The notes beneath the pieces are model-generated. The model saw nothing but the letters and a program-made list of their open reading frames with translations. It ran no database searches and was not told where the DNA came from. DNA of 56,686 nucleotides, filler included, from Jimgerdemannia flammicorona (lineage: Eukaryota): NCBI GenBank assembly GCA_003990765.1. It is 2 parts of 2 records of this genome, joined end to end, with 100 filler letters (N's around TTAATTAATTAA, not from the genome) between each part and the next. Parts side by side here need not be neighbours in the genome. Positions count along the whole stretch, not along the records: positions 28,399 to 56,686 come from RBNJ01000573.1; 1 more part is not named here. One strand, 5' to 3'. Position numbers and translations under genes: made by a program. Of this stretch, positions 1,932-52,637 are shown piece after piece. Position 1 is the stretch's first letter. Each line of letters begins with the position of its first letter.

Positions 1932-1985
1932 TTTTTTTTTTTTTTTTTTTTTTTCTTTTTATAGTCTCTTGGACTCTGCCATTTA

Positions 1986-16709: not shown

Positions 16710-16714
16710 CCAAT

Positions 16715-18370
16715 GCTCTTCATTCATTACTTGCAGGTCTACCTCCCAGCTCCTCTACTATAAAGTTATTTATCATCTTGCACATTCATAAAAGGATTCC
16801 CACCTCCTTCCTCTCAGGAGTCACTGGCCTCTCTCTATCCAATATTGAGATATCAGCTCCTATGCTCACAGTCTTATCTCACTCCTCCTCTTAGATATCC
16901 ACCAGTTCATCCTCACCAGTTGCTACCACCTACCCCCCCTTCACTATCTCAGGAACTCCAAAGTGTACTTACTGGGCTCCCCACATAGATACATCCTCTG
17001 CCACTCTACCCCTTGAAGCTGGACCTTATCTAATAAGAAGTGTGGAGGTTAGGGATGGCTCCTAGACTTCAAAGGTACCATCTGCATAAGAGTTATACCC
17101 ATTCATCTCCTTTTCTACTTCTGGCCCCTTCTCTGCATTCCTGCCATCTTTGCTGGCCCAGACACTCTCCTTGGCTCCCCTTATGATTTCAATGCTACCA
17201 GCATCCTTCTTTGCCCTGCTCTCCAGGTTCACCAACAGCTCTCTCTTGCATCCTTGGGATCTTTCCCACAGCCTCTTATCTATATAAATCCTCTTTTTAT
17301 CCATTACTTCTAAATGTATCAACTCTATATATATCTTCCAAGCCTTTGCTCTCTACTTTATAGCACTACTCAGCTCCTTCAATACCTCTAACAAATCCTC
17401 TTCCTCCTCCTCACTCTTCTTCACCCTTATCACCTTGCATAAGAAAGCCCTCCAAACCATTACTATAGACCAGTCTCTAGTCTTCCCAGTAGCTTCCTTT
17501 TCTGCCAACCAAATTCTAACATTAATATCCCTAGTCTGGAATGAGGTCCCCTCTCAGACCTGGAACCCAACATCAACTATCTCTCCATACTCAGCTATGA
17601 CTTCTTCAACTCTCCTTCTCATCTCCTTAGCAGTCACCATGAGCATACAACTGCACTACTCTGGGGTCCCACCTCAAGCAGTATGCCATCAGAACACATA
17701 CCTCTCTAACAGTCAGTCCAGCCTTCAGTACTTCCTCCAATGGCCCAGCCTCCTCAAAGCCAACCTCCACTCCTTTCAATCCTTTCAGGAACTTCATAGA
17801 CATAGCTCCAGCCACCTGCTTAGCAATTAGCCCCAGCACCATTTTTGTCATTACTGCTAAGCCCCAGAAGTACAAAGTAACTGTGAACTCTGAGATTGAC
17901 TTCTTGAGTAATGGGGCCACTGCCAGGCCCATTACACCATCTGCCAGGTATCTCATCCATCTAAGCCCCATCCTCTCAGCTCCATCATCTACAGTCACAT
18001 CTGGATTTTTTTTCAGATTGGCAGTTCTATTGCCATCAGCCATCACACTTACCTCAGCCACTATGTCTTCAGCTCCACTGCCCCTACTACCAAGGACCAC
18101 TCCCTTCTGCTCAGTTGTCTTTACCATCTTCTTGCCCTTTCTCAGCCAGCTCTTCAGTCCAGACACTGGCCATTCTCCCTTTGCTACATCTGCAAAACTT
18201 ACTCTCACTGACCCCTGCCCTCTGACCCTGCTCTCTTCCCATCTATATCCTCTCACCAGCAGACCCCTCATACTTCCCCCCAAGCCAGGGCCCCTCTCCA
18301 CATACTGCCAGTTGAACATGCTAGGGCCACTCTGCTCAGTATATACCTCAGAATATATATTGGTTGCCAT
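16715..18370 (-). pseudogene. LINE copy 2 ORF1, 5' portion; the remainder lies at about 5690-6057
   Basis: 247-aa ORF fragment 17627-18370 lies upstream of ORF2 and is homologous to 21436-21813 in LINE copy 1 (NLKKNPDVT..GLAVAPLLKKSI). Confidence 0.7.
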
Positions 18371-18454
18371 GTTGCTAGACTCTTCTCTCCAAAAACTATA
18401 TTGTGAGTATTGCCAAAAGATTGTATAATCTGAATGTTACCAGAGAAAGATATG

Positions 18455-21400
18455 TACTGGGTCATCTTCTGCAGTCTTGCCACCACTACCTTGGTGATCA
18501 ACTTTCTGTTCATATCCAGAAGTATGATAGGCTGTCAGTTCTTCTAGTCCTCCCTCTTGCTCTTGTTCTTATAAAGCAGTACTACCAGCTCTATATCTTG
18601 CTCACTCACCCACCTCCCTGACTGTAGTACCAAGTTACACAGTATCATTATCTCTTCTAGTATACCAGAGACTTCTATCATCTTCTTTCAAAAGTCTCAG
18701 GGCAAAACATCCTCTTCTGGTACCATGCCCAGTATAGTTATGGCAAGAATCTAGTAAATCTCCTCCTCCTGAACTGGTATCACTAAGCTGCCCAATCCAT
18801 CTACTTATAGTGGGTGCTAATCCTCCAAAGTATGTTCAATGATAGCTATATCAGCCCCACCCTCCTACTCACTCCACAAACCACTCCACCTCTTCTTTAG
18901 TGAGTCTAAAATATCCTGGAGACCTTACATAAGTAGCCCATCTGAATTCAGTACCCCCTCCCATCTCTGCCTTACTCTCCTCACCTGAAGGATCCTTGAA
19001 AGGTACTGAGAGGGTCTCTCCCCCTCCTCCAGACCTTGCCAGTATAATCATGTAGCCAAACTCTACATCTGTGACTCCTTCTCCTCTCTCAATATCTGTT
19101 ATATATAACTCTGCAACCTCTAGCTTAGCCCACATCAATCTTCAGTCCTCCACCCCCTCTATGGCCAAAAGATCTGCCCAATTGTCCAGAAGTCTAGCTA
19201 ATCTAGCAGAAGCTCAGAACACCCTCTTCTTCCTCTGCCCACCCACTGTCTTACCAGCCTCCCTCTAATAAACTCTAGTAGCCTCCTTCAACCTTATCTA
19301 TCAGATACCAACTGGGGCACTCTCTCATATCCAACCTTCTACTCTCTGCCAAATGTCCTCAGCCCACTTGTCCCACAGTACCTTCTCAGCTAATAAAGAG
19401 GAATTGAGACACTAATGTCTAGGCCCATCTCTACTCTCCTCAAAATGACCCTGTCCCAATAGCCTCCAATAATCAGACCATAGATACCACTCAGCCTCTA
19501 GCAACTTCCAAATATCTAAACCCCAGCAGTCTGCTGTCAGCACTCAGTCAATCCTTATCTCCAGGCCATTTGCCCAGTATATATATATCCTTCTATTTCT
19601 CCAGAATCCTGCTCAGCCTTTTCACATCCTCTCACATCTCCAGGTCCCTGCTCCTATTCTCAGTCCCCTACCCTCTATCAGTCCTATCCACTAGTATATA
19701 CTGGACTATATTAAAGTCTCCTCCAAGAATGTCCACTACAGCCTCTGTAAGAGCCCCACTTTTCTAGAATCTCTTCACCCATTCCACTCACTCATCCTGC
19801 ACAGCAGAGCAGTAGCAGGAACTTACTATAATTGGCTCCCAATCTGGTTGAATTCACTCTCCCCAAACCAGTCTATCTCTCTAGCTCCTTGTATCTTGTA
19901 TCTTCCCTCCACCTCTCCAGACCAGGATCCCAACCTTGCTCTTCCAAACTACCTCTCCTCTCTATTCCTTCATCCATTCCAGTCTATCTAAATCATCTTT
20001 ACATCTAATATCCTATAAAAGAAAGAGATCAGCCTCCAAACTCTTTAGCTAAGTAAAAATATTCTGATATTGAGCTGATCTCCATAGCTTATTTATATTC
20101 AAAGAAAAAATGTTCATTATACTATTCATAAGAAATAATGTTAAAAGTCAAGCATATTCTCTATAACTCTACATTCATCTCCTCCTGTACTAAGTTCAAA
20201 TCATATTCATTAGCCACTTTTTCCTCTTCAATCCTCTTAGCCTCTAAAGTTCAGCTAGCTCCCCATCCTCCTTTTCCTCAAAGTTCTCATGATACTCTAA
20301 GCAGGCTTCCTACCAGAGCTACAGTCTCTCTCTGCTCACTAGAGGGTAGTATACTCCCCAGCAACAACTGTCAGCTCTGCCTCTCTTGTCTTATCAATCT
20401 CATATCCTTTCTCTTCTAAGAAACTGCAAGCACCTCCACCTTCAGAGCCTCCACCACTTCATCTCTCTGCAAGATTTATGCCCATTGATCACCACTAAGT
20501 ACTCTCAGGTCTATATCACCCAACTCCTCAGCTACTAAGTTATTCATCATCTGACATATTCACTGTAGGTTTCTCATCTTCTTTTTACCTGAAGTCGATG
20601 ATCTTCTCTCTCTCAACATTAAGGTATTGGCCTCTATACTTATAGTCTCATCTCACTCCTCCTCAGAGATATCCACCAGTTCATCTTCATCAGCCACTAC
20701 TACCTGTCTCTCTTTCACTATCTCAGAAACTCTAAAGTATACTTACTGAGCTCCTCATATAGGCATATCCTCTACTACTCAGCCCCTCAAAACTGGACTC
20801 CTTCTGATAAGAGGAGGAGTATTCTCTCAGACTTCAAACATACTATCTATATATAGATCTTTGCTCAGCACCTTCCCAACTCCTTCTGGGCCCTTCTCTA
20901 TATTCACTTCACCTTTGCTAGCCCAGATACTCACTTTGGCTCCCCCAGTACTCTCAATACTATCAGCATCCCTCTTCACCTTTCCCTCCAGACTTGCCAG
21001 CAACTCTCTTTGCCTCTTGTATCCTTGGGACCTCTCTCACAACCCCTTATTAATGCAGATGTACTTTCCATCCACTATCTCTAAATGCATCAACTCTATA
21101 TAAGCCTTTCAAGTCTTTGTCCTCTGCTCTACTATACTACTTAACTCCTCCAGTACCTCTAACAAATCCTCCTCCTCCTCCTCCTTGCTCCCCTTTACCC
21201 TTGTTACCTTACATATAAAGACTCCTCACACTATTACTGACAGCCAATCATGAGGCTTCCTGGTAGCCTCTCTCTTGATCAACTGAATCCTGACATCAAC
21301 ATCTCTAGTTCTAAATGAGATCTCTTCTCAGACCCAAAACCCAATATTGATCACCTCTTTATACTCAGCTATGATCTTCTCAACTCTCTTTCTTATCTCC

Positions 21401-22256
21401 ACAGCAGTCACTATAAGTACTTCTTTTACCAGAAGTTACACTACCCTGGGGTTCCACCTCAAGCAATGCACCATCAAGATATACACCTCCCCAATAGTCA
21501 GCCTAGTCTTCAGCACATCCTTCAACAGCTCAGTCTCATCAAAGCCCACCTTTACCTCTTTCAAACCCCTCAGAAACTTCATGGATGCTATACTATCCAT
21601 CTGCTTAACAATTAGCTTTAAGACTATTTTCACCATTACTGCCAAGCCCCAGAAGTATAAAGTAACTATAAACTTCAAGATTGACTTTTTGAGTAATGGG
21701 GCCACTGCCAGGTCTGTCATACTATCTGTTAGATCCCCCAACTGTCCAGGCCCCATCTTCTCAGTCTCATCATCAGTAGTCACATCTGGATTTTTTTTCA
21801 GATTACTAGTCACTACTCAATCAGCAGTTATGTATACCTCCAGCCACTATACCACTAGCCCTGCTACTTGATACTCCCAAGAGAGTCCCTCCTAGCCCCC
21901 AAGCAGTAGCCTTCTTCTTTCCACCCTACAGCCATCTATCCAGCCCAGCTATCATATCTCCTATTTGACCTTCTCAGTAAAGCTCATCTGCTTCTCTCTT
22001 GACTATACTATATCTTCTTCTCTACTACTACTAACCTCTCTTCCTCTCAATAAAGTGCTCAGTATCTCCAACCCTACTCTCTGACCCCTCCCCACATGCT
22101 GCTATCTGAATGCACTGAGGCCACTCTGTCCAGTATACTCTGTAGAACTCTGATTTGAGGATATGTTCTTTAGATATTTCTCTAAAGAATAGTATAAAAG
22201 TAGTTGATATATATTTGTATAATATGAGATATATCAGGAAGAGACTGGAGAGATAT
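18455..22256 (-). mobile_element. LINE copy 1, 5' part (ORF1 about 20135-22165; ORF2 start at 20129, endonuclease to RT N-terminus); 5' boundary approximate
   Basis: Colinear with LINE copy 2. It has the same ORF2 start (MNSIMNIFSLN) and its RT continues from position 1931. Confidence 0.8.
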
Positions 22257-22712
22257 ACTCTCATTTTCTAATGAGTCTAATAGATCCTTAAGTTGATCAA
22301 TCAAGAGATTATATATCAAAATTGCAGAATATATCATTAGAAACTTTTACCAAAACAACTTCTTTTATATATTAATTAAAATATTAAAGTAAAATAAAGA
22401 GTAAAAGTATAAAAAGAGATGAGCAAAATAATACTAAATCAGTAAAAATACTGATAAGCACTCTTCTACTTACTTGTAAAACTTTAATAACTTTTCTTAA
22501 TTTCTCTCACTCACTCTTCTCAATTACCATATCTCATATTTCTCTATCTGCAGCAGTAGCAGAATCTAGTGCCTGAATTATATTTAAATAAGTTAATATT
22601 AATTAATAAGTCTGATACTATTCTCCAATATTATTATTAGTAACCTACTATAGTAAGTATTAGTGTATATTTAATTATTGTAAATATTAAGTTTCAATAT
22701 ATACTAACATTC

Positions 22713-22894
22713 AAAATAAGTAAGGAGAGATGGGGTAGTGAGTAGTAAGATAGTATTTAAGTATGAAGATATGGGGGAGGAAGGGGCCCTAGGGGGATTG
22801 GGTAGTGAGAGAGAGTACTGTATTTATATTTAATAAACTAGTAATATGTAAATGGTAAAGTCTAAGTGACTATAAAAAAAAATATAAAAAAAAA
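22713..22894 (+). mobile_element. Short 5'-truncated copy of the same LINE family with A-tail
   Basis: Matches the reverse complement of 1-45 and of the LINE 3' end (..AGTCTAAGTGACTATAAAAAAAA). Possible TSD AACATTC on both sides. Confidence 0.75.
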
Positions 22895-23029
22895 CATTCT
22901 TTTAGAGCAAGATTGATTACTTTACATTATTCAGTAAGTTTTTTTTATTACAATAATGATAATTGGATTATAATGATTAATTTGTATAACTTTGAAATGG
23001 TATTAGAGCTTATATAAATTTTACTTCAA

Positions 23030-24112
23030 TTATCAAAGAGTTGTGTGAGATAATCTTGAACAGTAAGATTCAGAACATAGGCCTGACACTATATATAGTA
23101 TTGTCTACATCAAAGATTATATTTTCTTGTTGAAGTTTAGTTACCAAAATATGGAAAAATGTAATATTATTAAAGATATTATCTATTATAATGATCAATA
23201 TCTATATTTCAAAATTTTAATATATAAAATTATATAAAAAGTAGTTAATGATTAAAAGTAAAAAATATGTTTTTTTCTTTTTATCCTCTTTTAACATCAG
23301 TTTAAAAATAAAAACTTCTATACTTTAGTTGTAACTCTAAGCTCTTGAATATAGTTTATGAATACTTCTGTAATATTTTCTTCAGAATGAGGACCCTCAA
23401 GCTTTATAAAGTCAAGAGTGAGAGTTTAAAGCTACCAATTAGTATCAATCTAATATCTAGTAATACTAAGAAATGAAATGATATTTGGAGATATTCAGAT
23501 ATTAATTGTGAATAAAATTTTACCCACTATACTCTGTAGTAAAATTTGAAATATAGTTAGCAACTATATTTGATTCAATGATATCTTTAATATTACTAAT
23601 AATAATCTGAATACTTTTATCTGAAGTTTTTGATAGAGATTATTATACTCTTTTTTATAGGCCTCTATAATATCATTATAAATAGTATCAATACTTGAGA
23701 TATATAAATCAGGCTTGATAAGACCAAAGAGACTTCATAATAAAGTGCTCTCAATAGCTGTAAATAGTTAGTCTTCATATATAATTCAATAAATAAGTTG
23801 ATTTTGAAACTTCAATATAGAATATAGCTAAATTGTTTTTCAAAAAAAAAGAAAAAAAAACTTAAGAGGTATAAAAGATATATTTTTAAATCTATACTAA
23901 AATAAGAGAGAGATCATCTATTTATTATAGCTAAAATATCAATTTTATTTAATATTATATTCAATTCTATTTTATCTGAATATTAAGCTTTCATGTACTT
24001 ATTATATTTATAGTAGAGTTATCATACATCTTGTACTTCTGCCTGTATTTTAAAAATTTTACACATATATCAAACAAACTATAAATATATCTAAAGTATT
24101 ACAAATTTTACT

Positions 24113-24152
<40 letters not shown>

Positions 24153-24260
24153 ACCCATAATACTTATAAGTATCTTCATTTTTACTAGTCTTGGTACAAT
24201 ATTACTAAACTTCAGAATGAGAAGTATAGTATGGAATATTATTCAAAGAAGATTGAATAT
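23030..24260 (-). pseudogene. Intron-containing hAT-family transposase remnant (BED finger plus N-terminal DDE region); not present in the ORF track
   Basis: Manual minus-strand translation gives: SEV*xY..YK (BED start); *IIYED*LFTAIE..LFGLIKPD; GKILFTINI*ISPN..FLSIT.Y*IDTNW.L.TLTLDFIKLEGPHSEENI; DNIFNN (DNASNN-like); CQAYVLNLTVQD (CxAH-LNL motif). Short GT..AG AT-rich introns are present, e.g. about 24092-24154. Confidence 0.85.
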
Positions 24261-24404
24261 TGTTTAAAGAAGTCTAACTTAAAGTATTATCAGTACTATA
24301 AAATATTGATGGCTGGTCTATTAACATTGATATAGTATATATATATATTTATATGTATGTATTTTGCTCATATGTTCTTTTGTTTATATATATTGATAAA
24401 TCAT

Positions 24405-24683
24405 ATGATAGGTTTGAATTTGAGATTTGAATCAGATAGTTCAAGTTAAATAATTTGAATTTAACAATTTAAATCTGGAGATTTGAATCTAGTGATTTGA
24501 ATTAATAACTCCAAGATTTAAATCAGAGTAGTCACAATTTGAACTAATTTAAATTAATCATATAATGAATTTGAATTGATTTCAATTATATAGTTCAAAT
24601 TAATTATATAATGAATTTAGATTAGTTTTAATCAGGAATAGTTACAATTTGAATCAATTCAAACTAACTTATTTGGAGTACTA
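24405..24683 (-). repeat. 5' terminus of the hAT element: subterminal TTTGAAT/ATTCAAA repeats and terminal inverted repeat ending GGAGTACTA
   Basis: The terminal sequence matches the TIRs at 26212-26223 and 27901-27912, and it lies upstream of the transposase. Confidence 0.7.
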
Positions 24684-25725
24684 ATAACTACTAGTATAAA
24701 TATCAATCTGTATTCATATCTGATTACTTTAACTATAAGAGAACATAATCTGTACCTCTAGATAATCTTTGAGATTGAACCAATAAATCTATCTTTTGAG
24801 TATAAATAATATGAATAATAACTACTAGTATACTATAACTCTGCAACACATAGTATCATAACTTATTAAAGATATACTGACAGTGAATCTGATGAAAGCA
24901 AAGATGATATACCTCTTCCACCTACCAATACCCTATCAAGTATATGAGACAGATAATACTATCTTATAAAATAATAATATAGTTTCAATATACTACTATA
25001 TAAATAGACAGAGAGATATAATCTAAAAACTGCTCTTCCTAGATAACTACTTCATCAGAGATGATATCATTGATAGTGATCTTATTGAAGAATTTCCAGA
25101 CAGTATCTAAATCTATATAATAGTTATTAGTATAGTTAGATTAGCCTTATACTATATAACTATATTCTGACTCATCAAAGCACTAAGTACTATATCCATA
25201 TTTAGCATAATTCAGATAGCCTCCTATTAGTATAAATACTCACTCTCTCAGATCTCAGAATTTTAGACAAAAACAGATAAATAAGTTAAGAACACTCCTC
25301 TATACAAATATCTCTTCACACACTACTCTTAATATTAGTCAATAGTAATATTATAAATAGTAAATAAACCTATTTAATAATCCATAAACTACTCTTAAGT
25401 AAAACTATACTATATTAGATTCTACTTCTAATTAGATTCTAAAATTTTCTAATTGAGTATTGTCTATAGTGATATACCTATTCAACTAAGCTGGTCTTAG
25501 TTTCTTAAACTTCCTAAAATATAGAAAATCCTGAACATCTAGAATAAGTCTGAAAAAGAACTTTGATTAAGACATTAATTCAATCTAGAAATCAATAAGT
25601 ATAGAGAATATACTCTATATGAAATTGATCTTAACCTTAAGAAAACAGTCTTCCAGAATATCTAGAACTTCCAGAAAACCCTTTCAGAACTATGTAATGA
25701 TATCTTAATAAAGTACCCTCTTATA
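24684..25725 (+). repeat. Old 5'-truncated solo LTR fragment of the chromovirus family; includes the 3' part of the LTR-ORF
   Basis: Colinear with about 30747-31872 but strongly AT-shifted. It ends CCCTCTTATA with no PBS after it. Confidence 0.85.
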
Positions 25726-26075
25726 CTTAATATATATATATTAAGAAGTCTTTTAATTATTCTTTTATTTAATAGTATTATATACTAAGATTTGAAAAAG
25801 TACTATTTCTTTATAGTAGAATAAAGGTGTTACTCTCCTTTAGTAACTATTAAAAGAGACTTGTTCTTGCTATACACAGACTAAATCTCTTGTCATTTAG
25901 ATTAAAAGAGATTTTTTTTTTAGATTTATATATCAGTTCTTAGTTCTGGTAGAAGTTAGTTAGACTTCTGGAGTTTAGTCAGAAACACTAAAGTAACTTA
26001 AGGTTCATTACTAAGGAACTCAGAGGAGTGTATATAGAGGGGAATTTGTACTTGACTAAGAGCTGGTTTTCCGGC

Positions 26076-26390: not shown

Positions 26391-26525
26391 CGTTTTCCGC
26401 GTTCGTCTCCTTTGCCTCTTCGTCTTGTTCGCGTGTCTCTCGTTCGTGACGTCATCGCCGGGTCACGTGATCGCTGTTCGCGGATTCTTATTACAATCAT
26501 ATACTATCATAGTATTGATTATCGC
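26391..26525. promoter_or_regulatory. CpG-dense patch with CRE-like TGACGTCA (26447-26454) and E-box CACGTG (26464-26469); putative promoter-like site
   Basis: About 16-17 CpG in 135 bp within otherwise CpG-depleted DNA, plus two palindromic motifs. Confidence 0.4.
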
Positions 26526-27157
26526 TCCTTTCTCCACTACCTTACTGGTCACAAGGTTTGGTAGGCAACCTTCTGAGTCCCCTTTCTCCTATTATTACCC
26601 CCTCTACCTTGGGTTGGTTTGCTGTGCCTGCAGGGGTATGATGAGAGGAGAGTAATGGTAATAAGTTGCCCTTTTATTGGTATCAGATCAGTATCTTCTC
26701 CACTTTTTTGCAGTTTCTGGTGCCTTCAGCTGTATCTGGGGTATACTCATTTTGGTGCAGCACCTTCTTCCTTTTGCTGTCACTAACAAGATATTGTCTC
26801 AATACATCACAGGTTATATAGGGAGTCAGCTGACCTTGGACATTAAGTGCTCAGTATAGATTATCTACAGGTCCTTAGTGTCTATGGTGGGGCCCTCTGA
26901 CTTTGGTAAGCTTCCTGGTGAGCATGGTTCTGGCATAGGTGACTGTTTTTTGGATATTGTTGAGATAGGAGGAGAGATGGCTATCATAGATAAGAAGAAG
27001 AGCAATAATAATAGACCAGTAGGGTACCAGGCTGGGGGTGGTCATCAGGGCTGGGATAGGTGCTGTTTCAGTGGGGCCTTTTGATTGGTGCAGTATTGTT
27101 AGGTGATAGATATCACTCTTAGCTTCTTTTGACAATTCAGCAAATTGGGCCCTGATC
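26526..27157. repeat. Unclassified dispersed repeat X (decayed, coding-like on the minus strand)
   Basis: Homologous to 45805-46313 in direct orientation and to 45261-45803 in inverted orientation. Confidence 0.8.
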
Positions 27158-28298: not shown

Positions 28299-28398
28299 NN
28301 NNNNNNNNNNNNNNNNNNNNNNNNNNNNNNNNNNNNNNNNNNTTAATTAATTAANNNNNNNNNNNNNNNNNNNNNNNNNNNNNNNNNNNNNNNNNNNN
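28299..28398. other. Assembly gap (100 nt) with artificial TTAATTAATTAA linker
   Basis: N44-TTAATTAATTAA-N44. Confidence 0.97.
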
Positions 28399-29994
28399 AA
28401 CAAGTCTATACAGGAATCAGTATCCAAATCCCTGAAGGACATGTTGGAAGAATATGCTGTCACAGCAGTCTAGCACTGAAAGGACTCTCAGTAGAAGGAG
28501 GAGTCATTGACGAAGATTATACAGGCGAAATCATTGTCCTCATTCGAAACCACAGTTGGACACCCTTCAAGATCCCTATTGGTTTCTGCATTGCCCAGAT
28601 CCTATTTGAAAAAATCGAGTCAACCTTGACAGTCAAGGAAGTCCCTGAACTCCTGCCCACTATCCAAGAATCCAAAGGATTTGGTTCATCAAACAAAGCC
28701 CCAGCCCAATCTACCATGAGCAAAGAAGAACAATTCTACAAGAAGATCGAAGATGGATATGTACCAAGTGGCTGATGCCCTCATGGTATTGGAATGTACT
28801 CTTCCTGAATGATTGATGATTGCTTCTCTTGTGTCAACGAACTGGCTCAAAGAAGAACTAACAGAAGAAAGACTCCTACAACTGAAATCACCACCATTGG
28901 ATCAGACAAACTGCTCACCCTTAAGGCTTTTGTCAATGGAGCACCTGTCAAGATTATGATAGACAGTGGTGCCTCAGGCAACTTCATCAATGAGGAAACA
29001 GCCAACAGACTCAAGGTCTTCACCTCCCCAGTATAGCAAACTCAAGCAGTTGCTACAGCTGATGGAACCTCACATGTTATTAGCAAAGAAGTCTGCAATC
29101 TACCCTTCCGAATTGGTGACTACCGAGTACATATTACCCTCCAAATCATACCACTTCCTGACAATGAAATCATCCTTGGGACTCCATGGTTAAAACAAGA
29201 GAACCTCATGATTGATTGGGTAAACCATTCTCTGACCATTAAGAAAGAATGCCACAACTTCAAACTACAAAGCAAAAAGGACCCACTCAACTCTAGGGAC
29301 CCTGGACCAAAGATCACCCACATCAACAAGCTACAACTCAAGAAATTGGCCAAGAAATGCCCTCTCTTTGCTATCTCCATCCGACCATCCAAAGGAGAAC
29401 CCGAGAACTCTGAGGAAGATTTTTCCAAAGTTGACAGCCATGTCAGACCACTACTTCAGAAATTCTGAGACATATTCCCAAAGAAGCTCCTGAAAGACCT
29501 ACCTCCTAAACGAGCAGTAGACCACGCAATCAAGACTATTCCAGATGCCAAACCAGCCTTCAAGTCAATCTACCATATGTCTCGAGAGAAATTGATGCAC
29601 TCAAGAAGGAAATCGATGAACTCCTAGAACAAGGATTCATCAGACCCAGTGTATCACCCTATGGTGCACCAGTCCTCTTTGTTGTCAAAAAAGAAGGAGA
29701 CCTGCGAATGTGCATTGACTACCGCGATCTCAATGAACAGACCATCAAGAACTGTTGCCCACTACCAAGGATCGATGAAATATTTGATAGACTTACCAAC
29801 TGTAAGCGCACAACCTTCAAGCCACCGAAATTACACGTCACCCTCTGAACAAGCCACTGAAATTACACATGACCTCCGAACAAATCTGGAAATCACCTGC
29901 TCAATCACGAAGCTGAGTCAAACCAAAGTCACAGTGCACAAAGCTGAGTCAATATGAAGTCACGGAATACAAGATTTACATAAACAGAATCTTA

Positions 29995-30019
29995 CCAATC
30001 AGGACTAAATACATATATA
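29995..30019 (+). promoter_or_regulatory. Putative promoter of the LTR-ORF (CCAAT plus TATATA about 70 nt before the ATG)
   Basis: CCAATCAG..ATATATAC is conserved in all full-length type I LTRs and is followed by an A/C-rich leader and AAACATG. Confidence 0.5.
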
Positions 30020-30088
30020 CCAAGCACCGAGATGCATCGAATCAGAAAACCAAAACAAACAACAACCACAACTTCCAAATACACAAAC

Positions 30089-31186
30089 ATGACCACTGAG
30101 ATCTACAACTGCATCTGCGCTGACATTTGGAATGCCATTATCAACTGAGCTACACCCCCTCTGCCCCTCATGAATATCCATAGCCTGGCACCCCTCTACT
30201 TCATGGAAGCCCAATGGAATGCCCTGAACATGCTTAGCGAGGCCCACCGAATCAGACAAATCTCAAGCTACTACCAGATTGGCCACCTCCTGGAAGACAT
30301 GGTCGAACACCACCATGATACGGACATTACCCAGATGTCTCAATACCAGAAGCTCATCGCTCGCAAACATCGAGAACTCTTCTATGAGTACAACACCTTT
30401 ATTCCCCGCCTCCGAGTCACTACCAGCAAAATGGTTGCTACTCTATCCTACGGCCAAATCGATGACATGATATAAGAACTTAATCATAAGTACCTTGAGT
30501 ATGTCAAAACCACAGACAGAACCTTCCCGCACCCTGATGACCATATCCTGCAAATGCCTCAAGTCGGATATGCCATGAAGGATGTCTACGATATAATCTA
30601 CTTCGACGAAGATGAAGCAGAAGACAATGATCCCTCTGATGCCGACATGACCTCAAGCCAAGGATCTCTGCCAACCCTGATCACGCCACCAACCTTGCCA
30701 ATGAACTTACAACAGTTCATAACTGCATATGAGACTTATTGGGACAATGACCACTGGCACGAATACCAACCTGCGTTCACTCCCGATTACTTCAATTACA
30801 ATGAAGAGACCAGAGAACACAACCTATACCTCCAGACAACCCTCGAGATCGAACCAACAACCCTACCACCTGAGTATGAGCAACATGAACCACAGCTACT
30901 AGCTTACTACAACCCCGTGACTCATAGTGCTGTAACCTATAGAAGATATGCAGACAGCGAATCCGATGAAAGCGAAGACAATACATCCATCCTTCGCCCA
31001 CCAATACCTTATCCAGCCTACGAAGCAGATGATGCTATCCTGTGGGATAGAGACGAAGTCCCAATGTATTACTACCTCAGCGAACAAGGAGAAGTAATCC
31101 GTGAACCATTATTCCTAGATGACTACTTCATCAGAGATGATGCAATTGATGGTGATGTCATCGAAGACTACCCAGATAGTGCCTAA
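30089..31186 (+). pseudogene. LTR-encoded ~365-aa protein of unknown function (two premature stops in this copy)
   Basis: A single frame MTTEIYNC...IEDYPDSA* joins track ORFs 30170-30475 and 30554-31186. The two stops are CGA>TGA and CAA>TAA, and they are sense codons in other copies. Confidence 0.85.
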
Positions 31187-31243
31187 ACCCATAAATAGCC
31201 TAGCAGTCATAGTATAGTTAGATTAGCCTTATACGACATGACT

Positions 31244-31514
31244 GTGAACTGACTCAGCAGTCAGATGATCTCTTGACATGTCAGATCACACTTGTACTAC
31301 ATGACTGTATTCCGACTCAGCAAGGCACTAAGTGCTACATCCATATTTAGCATAGTCCAGATATCCCCTCACTAGTATAAATACCCCCTCCCCCAGACCT
31401 CAGAATCTCAGACTTAAACAGACTTGAACACATAAGAACATTCCTGAATACTTCCCCACAATATTCCTTCATACAACTACTCCTAGTATAGTAATATCAT
31501 GAATAGCAAATAAA
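31244..31514 (+). promoter_or_regulatory. Main LTR promoter/poly(A) region: TGACTCA (AP-1/Gcn4-like) site and hairpins, TATAAATA at 31376-31383, AATAAA at 31509-31514
   Basis: The TATA and AATAAA motifs are conserved in every LTR copy, including the type II LTRs. Confidence 0.6.
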
Positions 31515-31875
31515 CCTATTCCATAACCCATAAACCACTCTTAAGTAAATCTGCTCCCTGTTAGGTCCCATTCCTAACCCCGTCACAAAATTTCCTAATT
31601 GGATATTGTCTGCAGTGATACACCAATTCAACTAAGCTGGTCTTAGTTTCTTGAACTTCCTGAAATACAGAAAATCCTGAATATCCAGAACTAGTCTGGA
31701 AAAGGACTTTGGTTGAGACATCAACCCAATCTTGAAATCAATAAGCATAGAGGATATACTCCATATGAAATTGATCTTGACCATAAGAAAACGGTCTTCC
31801 AGAATATCCAGAACCTCCAGAAAACCCTTCCAGAACTATGTAACAGTTACCCTAAAAAGTAACCCTCTTACAACT

Positions 31876-31898
31876 TGGTAGCAGCAGTTTTCAATCCA
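31876..31898 (+). promoter_or_regulatory. Primer-binding site, tRNA-iMet-like (TGGTAGCAG)
   Basis: Starts 3 nt after the LTR end and is complementary to the ..CUGCUACCA 3' end found in many eukaryotic initiator tRNAs. The same sequence occurs in copy A (8138-8146). Confidence 0.75.
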
Positions 31899-32833
31899 AT
31901 TCTACTTCAAGATGCTTCCTCACCCCGCTACAAACCCTTCTGCGAATTCCTACAAGTTGGTATAAAGCCCAACCTCTGAACTGGAATTTATCCAAACCAT
32001 CTGACAATCTGGAGAGAATTGAACCTAACATATAAGAACAATTTGACCTCCACACCTGTAACAAGTGGGATAAACTTCATTCAAAGAAAGAAGTACTCAA
32101 GTTAAACCAGCAAATAGGCGAAACTCTATTCATCAAACTCCTTGTACTACACCCAGCAAGTCAAGATGAAGAAGGTCTTATTGAAGCCTTCTTTACTCTT
32201 CTTAACAAGAGTTTTGTCAGCTCCACAAATCCGAGCGACCTAGGACAACCAGTAGCAGTCTTTCTAGCCTTAGTTCCTCATGAAGCCCAAGCCTCTGTAG
32301 CCAAGTGACTCAACTCTACTGACTTTCACCACACCAGGACCAAGACTGCCTTATACTACCGATTCCAGAACAGTAAGACCCGCCATATCCTTAAAGAAGA
32401 AGCAAGAGAAACCCTTCATCAACTATCTGACCCTGAACCTAAAGCAGGCTCTGCTATAGTGCTACCTGAATCTGAAACCAATACCGAACCTGAACTTGAC
32501 TTTGAATTAAGTCCATCTGAAATCAGATATATAACTGATTCTGTCTACTTTGATGCTGAGCAAACCCAATTACATGGGGACCAAACTGAAGAAGAGGAGA
32601 AGTATCTCACTGAATTCGATCCTGGATATACCACTGAAGGAGACACACTTCCATCAGGACAGAATATACCTACACAGCAACAAACAGTTATCTATCAAGC
32701 CCTTACTCCAGATCCACAACTACTACTCCAGCAACTTACATAGACCCAAAGAACCCCATCACACTCTGCACCATTACCTCAAGTAGTACTAGTAACACCA
32801 CTACCAGCAGTCCAACCGCCTCCAGCAATCAAT

Positions 32834-35800
32834 ATGGCAAACCAACAGATTCTTGATCTCATAGCCCAAGTAGCTATAATGGCAGCAACCATTACTGCCT
32901 TAGCTGAACAGACTCAACCTACCAAAAATCTGAGCCTACCTACCTTCAATGGTACTGTACAAGAAGTCCAAAGCTTCATTAGTGTAGTTGACACCAACTT
33001 CAAAGCCAATCAATGGACCAATGAGTGAGTTGCTGACCGCATTCTGACAACCAATCAAGACCACACCCTAGAACAACTCTTTGCTACCACTACAGCCTAT
33101 ATCCGCCGAGTTGTTACATTCTTCCAAGGACCTGCCAAAGAATGGTGGCAAACCCTTCTTGAAAAACCCCTCACATGGGATACCTGACCTGCAGTAGTTG
33201 CTCAGAATGCAGCAAACAATGCCCCAGGATATGGAGCCCATCCTGCAGCCCCTGGACTCAAACAACTTATGATTGCTCAATACCACAGCGAAACCATGAT
33301 TGCTGAATCTTGAGTAAAACTCTGCAACCTCAAATTTGATATACATGGCAAAGAAGAATTCAAAACCTTCTGTACAAAACTTGAGTCACTCCTGAACACT
33401 GTTGGTCTAGGATACATTACCAATGACAAAACATGAAATAGTACAAGAGCAGACCATTTATTTGATGCTCTGCCTGAATGGCTTACTAGAAAAATCCAAG
33501 AGCAAGGCTGCCCAGTTGGTTGTGATCACCAACAATGGTGTCTGGCAAGAATCAAGACCATGGTTAAGCGAATCCTAACAGCTGGACCAATTCTGCCCTG
33601 AAGACAATTCAACAACAAGGAAAAGACTTGGACCAAGAAAGAAGAACCCAAGCATGAAGCATCCCGAGCTCCCTCCACATCCACCTCTTGGACACCCAGA
33701 AATCATGAACCCACCCAGCCAAGCACCTTCAAGAAACTCACTGAAGGTGAAAGGAACAAACTTCAAAGAAGCGGAGCATGCTTCTATTGCCGAAAGACAG
33801 GACACATGGCCAGTGCCTGCTCTAACCGAAAACCCCAAACAGCAACATGAGCAACTGTTACCACTCTGCACCACCTCAACAACCTGATCACCAGAACACT
33901 GGACTTTGTCAAGTTAAGACAAACTGCTAAGGCCCCAACTAAAGGAAGTCAAAAAGCAGCTGGATATGACCTGTATGCAGCTGAAGAAGCTACAGTTTCC
34001 AACCGAGAAGTCAAACAAGTCTATACAGGAATCAGTATCCGAATCCCTGAAGGACATGTTGGAAGAATATGCTGTCGCAGCAGCCTAGCATTGAAAGAAC
34101 TCTCAGTAGAAGGAGGAGTCATTGATGAGGATTATACAGGTGAAATTATTGTCCTCATTCGAAACCACAGTTGGACACCCTTCAAGATCCCTATTGGCTT
34201 CTGCATTGCCCAGATCCTATTTGAAAAAATCGAGTCAACCCTGATAGTCAAGGAAGTCCCTGAACTACTGCCTACCATCCGAGGATCCAAAGGATTCGGC
34301 TCATCAAACAAAGCCCCCACCCAACCTACCATGAGTAAAGAAGAACAATTCTACAAGAAGATCAAAGATGGATATGTACCAAGTGGCCGATGCCCTCATG
34401 GTATTGGAATGTACTCTTCCTGAATAATTGATGATTGCTTCTCTTGTGTCAATGAACTGGCCCAAAGAAGAACCAATAGAAGAAAGGCTCCTACAACTGA
34501 AATTACCACCATTGGATCAGACAAACTGCTCACCCTCAAGGCTTTTGTTAATGGAGCATCTGTCAAGATTATGATAGACAGTAGTGCCTCAGGCAACTTA
34601 ATTAATGAAGAAACAGCCAACAGACTCAAGGTCTTCACCTCTCTAGTACAACAAATGCAAGCAGTTGCTACAGCTGATGGAACCTCACATGTTATTAGCA
34701 AAGAAGTCCGGAATCTACCCTTCCGAATTGGCGACTACCGAGTACATGTTACCCTCCAAATCGTATCACTTCCTGACAATGAAATCATCCTTGGGACTCC
34801 ATGGTTAAAACAAGAGAACCCCATGATTGATTGGGTAAACCATTCCCTAACCATCAAGAAAGGATGCCACAACTTCAAACTATAAGGTGAAAAGGACCTA
34901 CTCAACTCTAGTGACCCTGGACCAAAGATCACCCACATCAACAAGCTACAACTCAAGAAATTAGCCAAGAAATGCCCTCTCTTCACCATCTCCATCTGAC
35001 CATCCAAAGAAGAACCCGAGAACTCTGAAGAAGACTTTTCCAAAGTTGACAGCCATGTCAGATCACTACTCTAGAAATTCCGAGACATATTCCCAAAGAA
35101 ACTCCTGAAAGGCCTACCTCCCAAATGAGTAATAGACCATGCAATCAAGACTATCCCAGATGCCAAACCAGTCTTCAAGTCAATCTACCACATGTCTCCG
35201 AGAGAAATTGATGCACTCAAGAAGGAAATCGATGAACTCCTAGAACAAGGATTCATCAGACCCAGCATATCACCCTATGGTGCACCAGTCCTCTTTATTG
35301 TCAAAAAAGGAGGAGATCTGCGAATGTGCATCAACTACCGCAATCTCAATGAGCAGACCATCAAGAACTGTTGCCCACTACTGAGGATTGATGAAATATT
35401 TGATAGGCTCACCAACCCACAATTCATGAGCTCCTTTGACCTGCAAAATGGTTACTGGCAAATTGCCATGAAAGAAGAAGACATCTACAAGACAGCCTTC
35501 CGAACTCACTATGGATACTTCAAGTTCCTGGTTATGCCCTTTGGCTTAACTAATGCTCCAGCAACCTTCCAGACACTGATGAATACCATTCTGCATCCAT
35601 ATCTGGACAAATTTGTTGTTGTCTACATTGACAACATCCTAGTCTTCAGCAAAACCCTGGAGGAACATCTTGAACACCTTGAACTAGTACTACTGAAACT
35701 CCGAGAAAACAGACTCTTTGTAAAACTCAGCAAGTGTGAATTTCTTCTGAAAGAAATTCAATTTCTTGGACACATTGTCACACCAAATGGAATCAAAGTA

Positions 35801-37966
35801 GACCCCAGCAAAATCTCTGCAATCAAGGATTGGCCCAGATCCAAGAAGCTAAAGGACCTCCAGTCATTCCTGGGATTAGCAAATTATTACAGGCAATTTG
35901 TTGCCAACTTTGCTAAAATCGCTACTGCCCTCACCCAAATGACCAAGCACAGCAAGAAACAAGAATAACCTTGGACCATGAAATAAGAGAAAGACTTCAA
36001 CAATCTTGTAAATTGGGGACCCGAACAAGATACCACCTTCCAAGCACTGAAAGATGCTCTGATAACCACACCAGTACTTCAAGTGGCAAATCCTGCCCTA
36101 CCATATGAAGTCACCACTGATGCCTCTGACCTAGCTCTTAGAGCAGTGCTCATGCAAGAAGGACACCCTGTGGCCTATCACTCCCACAAGTTCAATGATA
36201 CTGAAATCAACTACGCAACTCACGAGAAGGAAATGCTAGCCATCATAGACACTCTGATAAAATGGCGACCATATCTAGAAGGAGCACACTTCACTGTATT
36301 GACCGACCACAAGTCATTAGTCAACATCAAGACACAGGCTACCCTTTCCCGAAAGCAAGCTAGATGGATGAAAGTCCTTACCAACTTTGACTATGAAATC
36401 CAGTACCACCCTGGCAAGGAAAATATTGTTGCCGATGCAATCTCCAGACCACCAATCAAAGAGGTTATCCAAACTCTGACCTTGGTTACCAACACTATCA
36501 TGGAACAAATCATTGTAGCATGTGTTGATGATAAGGAAGCTCAAGCACTCCGAGAAATTCTGAACAATGATGATGCTGACAAGCATACCTGGTACAATCA
36601 ATACCAACTTAAGGACAATGATATCTACTACAAGGACAGACTGTATGTTCCGAACAACCGAGATCTCAGAAGGACTATCCTATTTGAATGTCATGATGCT
36701 CCTACAGCTGGACATTTAGGATTTGACAAATGCTACAAAGTTATCTCCTGAAACTTCTATTGGCCCCGCATGGCAGATCAGCTCAAAACCTACATCACTT
36801 CCTGTGATGCCTGTCAATGAAACAAGTCCTCAACACTAGTAAAACCTGGCTTACTCCACCCTATCCCAGTACCATCCGCAAATTGGGAACAAATCTCTAT
36901 GGACTTCATTGTACAACTACCCCAAACCAAGAATGGGAAAGATGCAATTGTTGTCTTTGTAGACTACCTCAGCAAACAAGCCCACTTTATGCCTACTACC
37001 ACTACTGTAACAGCACCAGACATAGCTACACTCTTGTTTGACAACATCTTCCGCTATCATGGTCTTCCTAAGATCATTATTAGTGACCGAGATCCGAAAT
37101 TCACTAGCCACTTTTGGAAAGCCCTCCATGCACACCTTGGAACAAAACTTGCGCTATCCACAGCCTTTCACCCTGAAACCAATGGCCAAACTGAAAGAAT
37201 GAACCGAACTCTGAAACAAATGCTAAGGAACTATGTCTCTTACAGACAAGATGATTGGCATGAATACCTCACTGCAGTTGAGTTTGCCTACAACAATAGC
37301 AAGCAAGCCTCTCTTGGAATGACCCCATTCTTCACCAATACTGGACAAAATCCAAACACCCCATTGACACTTATCTGAACCACTGAAGAACCCTCCACAG
37401 TCGAAGCTGTTGAAGAATTCTTACTCTGAATGTGCAATTTAAGCCAGATTGCCATCGAGAATTTATCATGAGCTCAAGAACAACAGTCATACTATATTAA
37501 CCAACACCACTGAGAAGAAACCTTTGATATTGGTGAAAAGGTTCTACTGGACATCAGAGGATACCGAGTTGACAACCTCAAGTACAGACCATCTACAAAG
37601 CTGAACAGCAAGTTCATTGGACCATTTGAAGTCATTGCACAAGTCTCTCCAACCTCCTACAAACTGGCGCTACCAGATACCATTAAGATTCACCCAGTCT
37701 TTAATGTTCAATGTCTCAAGCGATACAATAACAATGATGATGAGCTATTTCCAAATCGGACCACCAAACCACCTATACCTGTCATCATTAATGACCAAGA
37801 AGAGTATGAAGTTGAACAAATCCTCAACAAACATGGCAACAAGAACCATCCCGAGTATCTTGTCAAATGGAAAGGTTACCCGATCCATGATGCAACCTGG
37901 GAACCCAAGACCAACCTTCAGAATGCTACCGATCTAGTTCAGGAATATGATTCCTTGAACAACTAG
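32834..37966 (+). pseudogene. gag-pol: Copy C single-frame Gag-NC-dUTPase-PR-RT-RNaseH-INT-chromodomain polyprotein (~1710 codons), with premature stops but no frameshift
   Basis: Track ORFs at 32834, 34091, 34571, 35192, 36083 and 36899 are all in one frame. Motifs: CFYCRKTGHMASAC, DS(S/G)ASGN, YID(N/D), TDAS, HDAPTAGH..CDAC, MDF/SDRD/GQTER, FIGPF, EYEVEQIL..YLVKWKGY. Confidence 0.95.
33899..34309 (+). CDS. dut: dUTPase domain within the polyprotein (stop-free in this copy)
   Basis: All five motifs are present: AGYDL, RSSL, GVIDEDYTG, (R>C)IAQ, RGSKGFGSS. Confidence 0.93.
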
Positions 37967-38377
37967 AACCAAATATTCTGCACCTATCTACACATACTAT
38001 ATATTATCCTCCTGAACATTATAATTATTGTGAACCAAACCAAGAACTCAGCAAAACAAGACAAGAATACTGAATCTCTGGAAAAATAGCAAAACTGAAA
38101 GCAAGCCTATTCTCCCTGTACCACTGGTAGGAAACAAGGCATAGACATTTAAGAAGATTCCTTAGAGGAAATTCTCCAGCAGTGAATGATGTCAGAATCA
38201 CTTCCGGCACACAGCATTGAACATATGACCCTTTAACATGTGAATCCAACACATTAGGCAACTGTACTACGAGCATGCCACTTTCTGAGAAAATGGACCT
38301 TACCAGACTTTTGACCTCCCAAATAGTGTAACAAAACTAGAACAAATTAGAAGGCCCTGATGAGGACGTTGAAAGCT

Positions 38378-38390
38378 AAGAAGGGGAGAG
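38378..38390 (+). promoter_or_regulatory. Polypurine tract
   Basis: AAGAAGGGGAGAG immediately before the 3' LTR; also present in A, B, D and E. Confidence 0.9.
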
Positions 38391-38391
38391 T

Positions 38392-40460
38392 TGTAAGCGC
38401 ACAACCTCCAAGCCACCGAAATTACACGTCACCCTCTGAACAAGCTACTGAAATTACACGCGACCTCCAAACAAATCTGGAAATCACCTGCTCGATCACG
38501 AAGCTGAGTCAAACCGAAGTTACAGCACACAAAGCTGAGTCAATACGAAGTCATAAAACACAAGATTTACACAAACGGAATCTTACCAATCAGGACCAAA
38601 TGTATATATACCGAGTACCGAGATGCATCAAATCAGAAAACCAAAACAAACAACAACCACAACTTCCAAACACATAAACATGACCACTGAGATCTACAAC
38701 TGCATCCGCGCTGACATTTGGAATGCCATTGTCAACCGAGCCACACCCCCTCTGCCCCTCATGAATATCCATAGCCTGGCACCTCTCTACTTTGTGGAAG
38801 CCCAATGGAATGCCCTGAATATGCTTAGTGAGGCCTACCGAATCAGATAAATCTCAAGCTACTATCAGATTGGCTGCCTCCTGGAAGACATGGTCGAACA
38901 CCACCATGATACAGACATTACCCAGATGTCTCAACACCAGAAGCTCATCACCTGCAAACATCGAGAACTCTTCTATGAGTACAATACCTTTATTCCCTAC
39001 CTCCAAGTCACTACCAGCGAAATGGTTGCTACCCTATCCTATGGCCAAATCGATGACATGATACAAGAACTCAATCACAAGTACCTCGAGTATGTCGAAA
39101 CCACAGACAGAACCTTCCCGCACCCTGATGACCATATCCTGCAAATGCCTCAAGTCGGATATGCCATGAAGGATGTCTATGATATAATCCACTTCGACGA
39201 AGATGAAGCAGAAGACAATGATCCCTCTGATGCCGACATGACCTCAAGCCAAGGATCTCTGCCAACCCTGATCACGCCACCAATCTTGCTGATGAACTTA
39301 CAACAGTTCATAACCGCATATGAGACTTATTGGGACAATGACCACTGGCACGAATACCAACCTGCGTTCACCCCCAATTACTTCAATTACAATGAAGAGA
39401 CCGGAGAACACAACCTATACCTCCAGACAACCCTCGAGATCGAACCAACAACCCTACTACCTGAGTATGAGTGATATGAACTACAGCCGCCAGCTTACTA
39501 CAACCCCACAACTCATAGTACTGTAACCTATAGAAGGTACGCAGACAGCGAATCTGATGAAAGCGAAGACAATACACCCATCCTTCGCCCACCAACACCT
39601 TATCCAGCCTACGAAACAGATGATGCTATCCTGTGAGATGGAGACGAAGTCCCAATGTATTACTACCTCAGCAAACAAGGAGAAGTAATCTGCGAACCCA
39701 TTATTCCTAGATGACTACTTCATCAGAGATGATGCAATCGATGGTAATATCATCGAAGACTACCCAGATAGTGCCTAAACCCATAAATAGCCTAGCAGTC
39801 ATAGTATAGTTAGATTAGCCTTGTATGACGTGACTGTGAACTAACTCAGCAGATGATCTCTTGACATGTCAGATCACACTTGTACTATGTGACTATATTC
39901 TGACTCAGCAAGGCACTAAGTACTACATCCATATTTAGCATAGTTCAGATATCCCCTCACTAGTATAAATACCCCCTCCCCCAGATCTCAGAATCTCAGA
40001 CTTAAACAGACTCAAACACACAAGAACATTCCTGAATACTTCCCCACAATATCCCTTCATACAACTACTCCTAGTATAGCAATATCATGAATAGCAAATA
40101 AACCTATTCCATAACCCATAAACCACTCTTAAGTAAATCTGCTCCCTGTTAGGTCCCATTCCTAACCCCATCACGAAATTTCCTAATTGGATATTGTCTG
40201 CAGCGATATGCCAATTCAACTAAGCTGGTCTTAGTTTCTTGAACTTCCTGAAATACAGAAAATCCTGAACATCCAGAACTAGTCCGGAAAAGGACTTTGG
40301 TTGAGATGTCAACTCGATCTTGAAATCAATAAGCGTAGAGGACGTACTCTATATAAAATTGATCTTGACTATAAGAAAACGGTCTTTCAGAATATCCAGA
40401 ACCTCCAGAAAACCCTTCCAGAACTATGTAATGGTTACCCTAAAAAGTAACCCTCTTACA
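38392..40460 (+). repeat. 3' LTR of copy C; contains the LTR-ORF at 38680-39778
   Basis: Direct repeat of the 5' LTR. Confidence 0.96.
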
Positions 40461-40465
40461 CCAAC

Positions 40466-43015: not shown

Positions 43016-43227
43016 AACCAAATATTCCGCACCTATCCGTACATACTATATATTATCCTCCCGAACATTATAACTATCACGAACCAAGTCAAGAACTCAG
43101 CAAAACAAGATAAGAATACCGAATCCCTGGAAAAAATAGCAAAACTGAAAGCAAGCCTATTCTCTCTGTACCACTGAACAAATTAGAAGACCCCAACGAG
43201 GACGTCGAAAGCTATGAAGGGGAGAGT

Positions 43228-52626: not shown

Positions 52627-52637
52627 GCCAGGCTAGA

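Follow-up and report, generated by a model that had tools for sequence, protein, structure and literature searches.

The stretch of DNA analysed here (the window: 56,686 nucleotides, filler included, joined from 2 parts of 2 records of the Jimgerdemannia flammicorona assembly GCA_003990765.1, positions 28,399 to 56,686 coming from RBNJ01000573.1) is a nest of copies of one family of long terminal repeat (LTR) retrotransposons, as revealed by BLAST of the window against itself. All six complete type I LTRs of this family, each of about 2.07 kb, share with one old LTR fragment a 365-codon sense frame, hereafter the LTR open reading frame (LTR ORF). An earlier note, made from the sequence alone, had placed this frame at 6348, 14943, 30089, 38680, 43484 and 54410 (minus strand) as well as in the old fragment, and had it fill about half of the LTR; all these copies were located, and in the 5' LTR of element B the frame (30089-31186) takes up 1098 of the 2072 bp (Table 1). 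Our results make it likely that the frame is a real, formerly selected accessory gene, carried inside the LTR of a dUTPase-bearing Ty3/gypsy chromovirus.

The carrier element and its LTR ORF

The nature of the carrier is clear from the internal region of element B, whose gag-pol frame (P0002, with stops read as X) contains a CCHC knuckle, dUTPase, aspartyl protease (PR), reverse transcriptase (RT), RNase H (RH), integrase (INT), an SH3-like domain and a chromodomain. The Pfam matches, all in this single frame, are dUTPase, the aspartyl protease (residues 876-991), RVT_1 (1136-1296), RT_RNaseH (1401-1499), Integrase_H2C2 (1589-1647), rve (1666-1761), SH3_Tf2-1 and Chromo (PF00385, residues 1972-2020, E=5.8e-16), the last of them shortly before the pol stop. 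Since the pol order PR-RT-RNase H-integrase that marks Ty3/gypsy elements is thus joined in one frame with a C-terminal chromodomain, the carrier is a Ty3/gypsy chromovirus, as had been proposed. It also has the TG..CA ends, the primer-binding site, the polypurine tract and the short target duplication of an LTR element. The LTR termini of element B read TGTAAG...CTTACA, and the element is nested in the internal region of element D with the 5-bp target duplication CCAAC/CCAAC on both sides, while element A is flanked by CTAAT/CCAAT. As for the relatives of pol, the best matches are environmental proteins of 50-54% identity, and named matches at 40-50% come from algae, plants and fungi.

Table 1. 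Coordinates of the retrotransposon copies, LTRs, LTR ORF copies and signals in the window
Feature	Position	Strand	Remarks
Element A	6058-16707	+	full length; LTR pair identity 89.4%
Element A 5' LTR	6058-8134	+
Element A 3' LTR	14653-16707	+
Element B	29801-40460	+	full length; LTR pair identity 93.9%
Element B 5' LTR	29801-31872	+	type I, 2072 bp, TG..CA ends (self-BLAST, sequence reading)
Element B 3' LTR	38392-40460	+	93.9% identity to 5' LTR
Element D	28399-29800 and 40459-43176 (internal region); 3' LTR end at 45256		interrupted by B
Element E	46316-52626	+	deleted relative with different LTR type (type II)
Element E 5' LTR	46316-47805	+	type II; ORF module replaced
Element E 3' LTR	51197-52626	+	type II; 89% identity to 5' LTR over compared part
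Element F LTR	52635-54703	-	type I
Old LTR fragment	24683-25723
LTR ORF copy A5	6348-7449	+	5' LTR of A; 6 stops; 4-bp insertion
LTR ORF copy A3	14943-16039	+	3' LTR of A; 7 stops; 1-bp deletion
LTR ORF copy B5	30089-31186	+	365 codons + TAA; stops at codon 20 (TGA) and codon 129 (TAA); no frameshift
LTR ORF copy B3	38680-39778	+	3 stops; 1-bp insertion near 3' end
LTR ORF copy D3	43484-44578	+	3' LTR of D; 2 stops; 3-bp deletion
LTR ORF copy F3	53313-54410	-	F LTR; 5 stops; no frameshift
LTR ORF part in old fragment	24683-25101	+	last ~134 codons; 8 stops; pieces in three frames; GC 27%
TATA-like CATATATAC	30012-30020	+	77 nt 5' of ATG; kept in 6/6 LTRs, C/T change at first base
TATAAATA	31376-31383	+	in ~45-bp block identical in 6/6 LTRs despite hypermutation; 190 nt past ORF stop
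AATAAA	31509-31514	+	kept in 6/6 LTRs; ~130 nt past TATAAATA block; presumed poly(A) signal near R/U5 border
Primer-binding site TGGTAGCAGCAG	31876-31887	+	3 nt past 5' LTR of B
gag-dUTPase-PR-RT-RH-INT-chromodomain of B	31892-37966	+	one frame, 2024 codons, 22 internal stops, no frameshift
Polypurine tract AAGAAGGGGAGAG	38378-38390	+	immediately 5' of B 3' LTR

The frame was open in the ancestor

The start codon of the LTR ORF, in the context AAACATGAC, and its TAA are kept in all six copies. Upstream of this ATG, the lineages in the six-LTR alignment are separated by indels of 2 bp and 7 bp, so the coding region starts at that ATG; with these indels in the way, an upstream extension or a start at the in-frame ATG at 30032, which is not conserved, was rejected. 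Within the frame three of the six copies are frameshifted, by +1 bp, +4 bp and -1 bp, a point absent from the earlier note, and premature stops fall in 14 codon columns, six of them hit in a single copy, five in two copies and three in three copies. No column has a stop in at least four of the six copies, whereas the other two frames contain 13 and 27 columns of that kind. At most of the stop columns the remaining copies read CGA, CAA, CAG or TGG, that is, one transition from a stop, and only columns 42, 171 and 265 need more than one change.

The density of stops leads to the same point. There are 25 stops in the 6 x 365 (2190) codons of the LTR ORF, about 1.1 per 100, which matches the gag-pol frame of B (22 in 2024), while the noncoding spacer that follows pol contains 9 stops over 144 codons and the other two frames of the ORF stretch have 14-21 and 29-50 stops per copy; at the stop rates of these two frames, a 365-codon open run would be expected by chance with probabilities of 6e-7 and 7e-14. 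Because the density equals that of gag-pol and no majority-stop column exists, the frame was open at insertion and has decayed since in the way of the undoubted genes. All six copies thus descend from ancestors with an uninterrupted LTR ORF.

The decay itself can be followed by comparing the two LTRs of one element, whose differences are post-insertion changes. Nearly all of these are transitions, and the per-site rates of C-to-T change are ordered CG > CA > CC >> CT, with values of 0.167, 0.093, 0.036 and 0.009 in element B and of 0.30, 0.153, 0.087 and 0.026 in element A. Since insertion the LTR ORF has decayed at the pace of gag-pol through this C-to-T hypermutation, whose pattern resembles repeat-induced point mutation or methylation-driven deamination as in ascomycete fungi. 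The window also contains an AT-rich island at 22001-26000, with a GC content of 24%. Taken together with this island and the type of element, the mutation pattern points to a fungus as the probable host.

Purifying selection on the encoded protein

For the period before insertion we considered those sites that separate A from B while being the same in the two LTRs of each element. Since an element inserts with two identical LTRs, such lineage sites mostly record changes that occurred during the replication of the lineages. The LTR ORF has 89 of them, distributed over codon positions 1, 2 and 3 as 23, 13 and 53, and the ratio of nonsynonymous to synonymous differences per site (pN/pS by the Nei-Gojobori method, NG86) is 0.14 in the ORF frame. 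The shifted frames give 1.15 and 0.91, and the within-element comparisons 0.33-0.37.

Because hypermutation can strike both LTRs in parallel, the 89 sites were split by sequence context. The CpA-compatible sites (n=36) comprise 17 synonymous and 19 nonsynonymous changes and the CpG-compatible ones (n=13) 4 and 9, while the other transitions (n=28) comprise 23 and 5 and the transversions (n=12, 9 of them at third positions) 8 and 4. Outside CpA/CpG, therefore, 31 of 40 lineage differences are synonymous and 9 nonsynonymous, whereas the within-element LTR pairs in the same contexts give 22 versus 25 (Fisher p=0.004). Likewise 31/40 lineage differences fall at third positions, more than the within-element share of 25/47 (p=0.001), and a plain comparison of A5 with B5 without the LTR-pair filter gives 44/65 (p=1.6e-8). 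As controls, the third-position share is 136/213 in pol, 46/87 in gag and 11/23 in the spacer. The bias is found in both halves of the protein and is strongest in the tail (34/43). These results show that, during the divergence of the element lineages, the protein was under purifying selection. The earlier note had observed that differences outside CpG are often synonymous, had proposed a dN/dS comparison with CpG sites excluded, and had concluded on a selected accessory gene, present in two copies per provirus and persisting in solo LTRs; the comparison, run among the copies of the window, agrees with it, for the lineage differences are mostly synonymous and the post-insertion ones are not. 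This main inference holds, the gene being retained here in LTR remnants.

Two further observations concern the distribution of divergence along the LTR. Outside CpA/CpG, A and B differ at 10 of 150 third positions in the first 150 codons (30089-30538) versus 34 of 215 in the tail (30539-31183), and this low divergence of the 5' part may reflect an overlapping cis-acting constraint or recombination. Moreover, the LTR flanks (288 bp 5' and 686 bp 3' of the ORF) show A-B differences at 2.3-3.8% of their sites outside CpA/CpG, as against about 12% at third codon positions of the ORF, so noncoding parts of the LTR are constrained too.

Relatives and features of the protein

Among 1.84 billion representative proteins the search for relatives returned three matches (P0003, P0004 and P0005), none of them a host-gene relative. 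P0003, encoded on a 998-bp contig, is a 247-residue ENA protein and is 66-67% identical to the C-terminal two thirds of the LTR-ORF protein; compared with the window copies, it has no stop over 247 codons and only two gaps, each of 2 residues and in frame. By contrast, the old LTR fragment of the window, which is 54-61% identical and has decayed neutrally, shows 8 stops and pieces in three frames over 134 codons. In an alignment of P0003 with three copies from the window, 143 of the 247 positions do not vary, and among tyrosines 21 of 23. P0004, a JGI protein of 128 residues, is 88% identical to the N-terminus, and it was found again, with no other relative, in a search of shorter proteins. 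P0005 is a repeat protein matched over 39 residues with E=6e-4, and was discounted as chance.

Other searches gave no relative. For example, pattern scans of metagenome_contigs matched 12 and 214 stretches, none of which encodes a relative, and scans of viral_contigs gave no locus. Pfam (to E<=1), PHROGs and NCBIfam contain no family matching the LTR-ORF protein (P0001), P0003 or P0004; the PDB sequence search gave a single match at E=1.1, and BLASTP against the element's own gag-pol reached E=0.16 at best. By all these sequence comparisons the LTR-ORF protein is an orphan.

The protein is acidic (isoelectric point, pI, 4.3) and rich in tyrosine (8.5%) and proline (7.4%). The highest Kyte-Doolittle mean over 19 residues is 0.74, so that it has no hydrophobic or membrane segment and nothing like the signal peptide or transmembrane segments of an env protein, in keeping with the earlier claim that it is not env-like. 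The AlphaFold2 structure model, run on five sequences, has a mean predicted local distance difference test score (pLDDT) of 33.4, with helices up to about residue 170 and little beyond; an N-terminal part of about 150-170 residues is thus weakly predicted to be helical. In a structure search against the Atlas, the P0003 model (pLDDT 0.39) had no usable match and the matches of P0004 stayed below the recognition bar. The tail of about 215 residues is acidic (pI about 4) and has a high content of Tyr and Pro. Although disorder is predicted for it, the tail shows the clearest constraint of the whole protein; an acidic serine cluster is conserved there, and many aromatic residues do not vary.

The earlier note also named PPxY motifs. 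PPPEY/PPEY and PPAY are present in copies D3 (43484) and F3 (54410), and the C at 30864 and at 30900 that gives PPPEY and PPAY is found in nearly all contigs of four public runs, so PPxY is the common state in the family; but the motifs are not conserved in the 66%-identical P0003, and the LTR-ORF protein does not show the conserved PPxY of WW-domain ligands and late-domain proteins.

Position in the LTR and possible expression

Two motifs downstream of the ORF bear on its place in the LTR. The invariant block with TATAAATA is presumed to be the promoter of the genomic RNA, with the U3/R border shortly downstream, and the AATAAA follows it. As this succession is the usual U3-R-U5 layout, the ORF most likely lies in U3, and we hold this placement, inferred from the motifs and in line with the earlier note, to be probable. 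Upstream of the ORF, CATATATAC is a candidate promoter of the ORF itself, judging from its motif, and is followed by an A/C-rich stretch that has no ATG before the ORF start.

With such a layout, the provirus would hold the gene in the untranscribed part of its 5' LTR and in the 3'-terminal part of its genomic RNA. Since a U3 gene is not at the 5' end of the genomic RNA, its translation would need an own promoter or a subgenomic RNA. The mechanism that we prefer, though tentatively and at somewhat less than even chances, is a separate mRNA of about 1.45 kb, which would run from the CATATATAC motif, in the first 288 bp of U3, to the LTR's own AATAAA, and by which both LTRs of a provirus and solo LTRs would be complete transcription units. 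Alternatives would be a subgenomic RNA made by splicing, or a long genomic RNA with its start farther upstream, in which case the ORF would lie in R. The four public runs (X1, X2, X9 and X4) offer contigs only, in which the joints look like nested insertions or DNA deletion variants.

As for the product, it might be a trans-acting regulator or an adaptor built of short motifs, with the acidic and aromatic tail serving as an activation region or as a docking site for host proteins. The anti-silencing or host-interaction role, which the earlier note had put forward as speculation, remains speculative. Taken to its end, the proposal would be that each LTR, solo ones included, is a self-contained gene with an own promoter, an ORF and a shared poly(A) site, making a trans-acting regulator, either an acidic/aromatic activator of the element's promoter or a blocker of the repeat-silencing machinery of the host. 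We regard this full version as speculative and rather unlikely to hold in all its parts. If true, it would mean a regulatory gene like those of complex retroviruses, independently evolved in a probably fungal retrotransposon and still expressed from LTRs after the loss of the elements.

LTRs without the gene

Element E shows that the family can do with another LTR. Its type II LTR, about 1.45 kb long, shares with type I ~50 bp at its start and ~740 bp at its end (the promoter/R/U5 part), and has about 700 bp in place of the ORF module, of which the last ~20 ORF codons are left. Each frame of this replacement has 13-23 stops, so a different ORF there was rejected. Most of pol, the part that matches positions 5285-8531 of element B, is missing from E. 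This suggests that the ORF module behaves as a block and that the E variant has lost it.

Alternative explanations

The alternative that survives best accepts the gene as real but places it in R. The genomic RNA would then start at the upstream TATA-like motif, R would be about 1.5 kb long, and the ORF would be the first cistron, comparable to the additional 5' ORFs in some plant gypsy elements. Such a reading could draw on the conservation of that motif 77 nt before the ATG, and a transcript from there to the poly(A) site of the 3' LTR would carry a terminal repeat and might thus be reverse-transcribed. However, the strongest promoter-like element, the invariant 45-bp TATAAATA block, lies 3' of the ORF with the AATAAA ~130 nt later, and an upstream-started transcript would have to ignore the poly(A) signal of the 5' LTR ~1.45 kb from its cap. 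For these reasons we consider it unlikely.

Less probable still is that the frame was captured from a host gene or some other element, has decayed neutrally since then and has no function for the retrotransposon. An entry by recombination is conceivable, as the block swap in the LTR of E shows, and known retroelement proteins include no relative of the protein; but a neutral piece should not give 31:9 in favour of synonymous changes between lineages against 22:25 within elements, nor stay open at 66% identity as P0003 has, and the search of representative proteins found no host gene from which it could derive. The least credible alternative is that context-dependent C-to-T hypermutation of an A/C-rich sequence mimics a codon pattern, the long frame resulting from low T and G, for although the ordered rates CG > CA > CC >> CT, the C content of third positions (38%) and the third-position richness of the within-element differences outside CpA/CpG (25/47) would suit it, the same sequence and the same process give different outcomes within elements and between lineages (p=0.004), 9/12 transversions are at third positions, and majority-stop columns number 13 and 27 in the other frames and zero in this one.

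Several points still weigh against a selected accessory gene in U3 as we read it. All six copies in the window are damaged, and of the 12 public runs listed for the ORF stretch none is recorded as RNA. As the LTRs of E are without the gene, it seems dispensable in cis and so not every member of the family needs its own copy. Part of the third-position excess is mutational, since the within-element set is itself third-position rich (25/47). The selection tests rest on few lineages, the family being known beyond the window from two environmental fragments. P0003 has neither PPxY nor LPxY, the domain description is weak because the mean pLDDT is 33, and the U3/R border has been placed from motifs alone.

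Comparison with known systems

LTR retrotransposons are commonly portrayed as gag-pol machines, with LTRs that contain cis-acting signals only, and complete genes inside U3 are a textbook feature of few vertebrate retroviruses. The best example is sag, the superantigen gene of mouse mammary tumour virus (MMTV), whose whole ORF of ~320-365 codons lies in U3, so that the provirus has two copies of it and the genomic RNA carries it at the 3' end; its translation needs an own promoter or splicing, and the product is a membrane glycoprotein of a vertebrate retrovirus. By position sag is the closest analogue of the LTR ORF, which is likewise complete within the LTR, most likely in U3, and therefore present twice in a provirus. 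The differences are that the carrier here is a chromovirus without env and that the protein has neither a hydrophobic segment nor a Pfam match at E<=1. Homology to Sag finds no support, with no Pfam family at that threshold and no PDB match better than E=1.1, and the type II transmembrane segment by which Sag is anchored has no counterpart, given the maximal Kyte-Doolittle mean of 0.74.

Other regulatory or adaptor genes, namely tas/bel of foamy viruses and nef of human and simian immunodeficiency viruses (HIV/SIV), follow pol or env and reach into the U3 of the 3' LTR. Tas has an acidic activation region and an internal promoter of its own, and Nef is an adaptor built of short motifs. By analogy these come closest to the likely logic of the LTR-ORF protein, with which they have no sequence similarity; they only overlap U3, whereas the LTR ORF lies wholly within the LTR.

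Extra ORFs are also described in LTR retrotransposons, such as ORF0 of Retrosat2, RIRE3 and RIRE8 and the additional ORFs of bdelloid rotifer elements, in the available parts of two papers (PMC3485330, PMC5408684). As far as those parts go, they are, like the LTR ORF, orphans of restricted gypsy-type lineages that evolve faster than pol. In the same portion of the first paper, ORF0 of Retrosat2 is located in the internal region upstream of gag-pol and outside the LTR (PMC3485330); the LTR ORF does not have this internal position between 5' LTR and gag, being inside both LTRs. No sequence relation of the LTR ORF to these plant and rotifer ORFs was seen.

The closest relatives in domain content are the dUTPase-bearing fungal chromoviruses described from Phanerochaete, Postia and Tuber (Tmt1), which, in the accessible part of the source, have the same combination of extra dUTPase and chromodomain as our carrier (PMC2864245). 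In the carrier, the dUTPase is placed after the gag zinc knuckle and before PR, unlike the Postia placements given there, and that part of the text mentions no ORF in the LTRs of these elements (PMC2864245). The domain itself (PF00692, E=1e-32) is found at window 33851-34420, between the CCHC knuckle and the protease, and also in elements A and D. A search of literature full text found no report of an ORF inside a retrotransposon LTR; subscription journals were outside its scope, so novelty is not proven.

A selected orphan gene in the LTR of a chromovirus shows the LTR as a gene carrier outside Retroviridae. Solo LTRs may then leave coding units behind in the genome, and long LTRs in other genomes merit a check for coding signals before they are masked as repeats.

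Other features of the window

Some further features of the elements are worth recording. In element B, window 32036-32850 holds ~270 acidic codons in the gag-pol frame, 5' of the recognisable gag, with 2 stops and no Pfam match; no Met is left ahead of MANQQ, near residue 320 of the frame read from 31892, and the stretch may be an N-terminal Gag extension or another coding part. The 425-bp spacer that separates the pol stop from the 3' LTR (37967-38391) occurs in public contigs as deletion variants, with joints 38058->38344 and 38126->38344. Element D is here without its 5' part, a run of N at ~28321-28398 standing directly before its internal region.

Between the LTRs of D and E lies an inverted repeat (45281-45798 and 45897-46308) with arms of ~0.5 kb and ~82% identity; a copy related to it is at 26524-27131, and it is possibly a foldback or terminal inverted repeat element. 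Finally, 1-6057 and 16708-22000 (minus strand) contain remnants of another repeat, with an RVT_1 match at 3121-3786 (minus strand; E=8e-5, below the Pfam cut-off), and since similar ORF pieces flank element A on both sides, element A may have inserted into that repeat.

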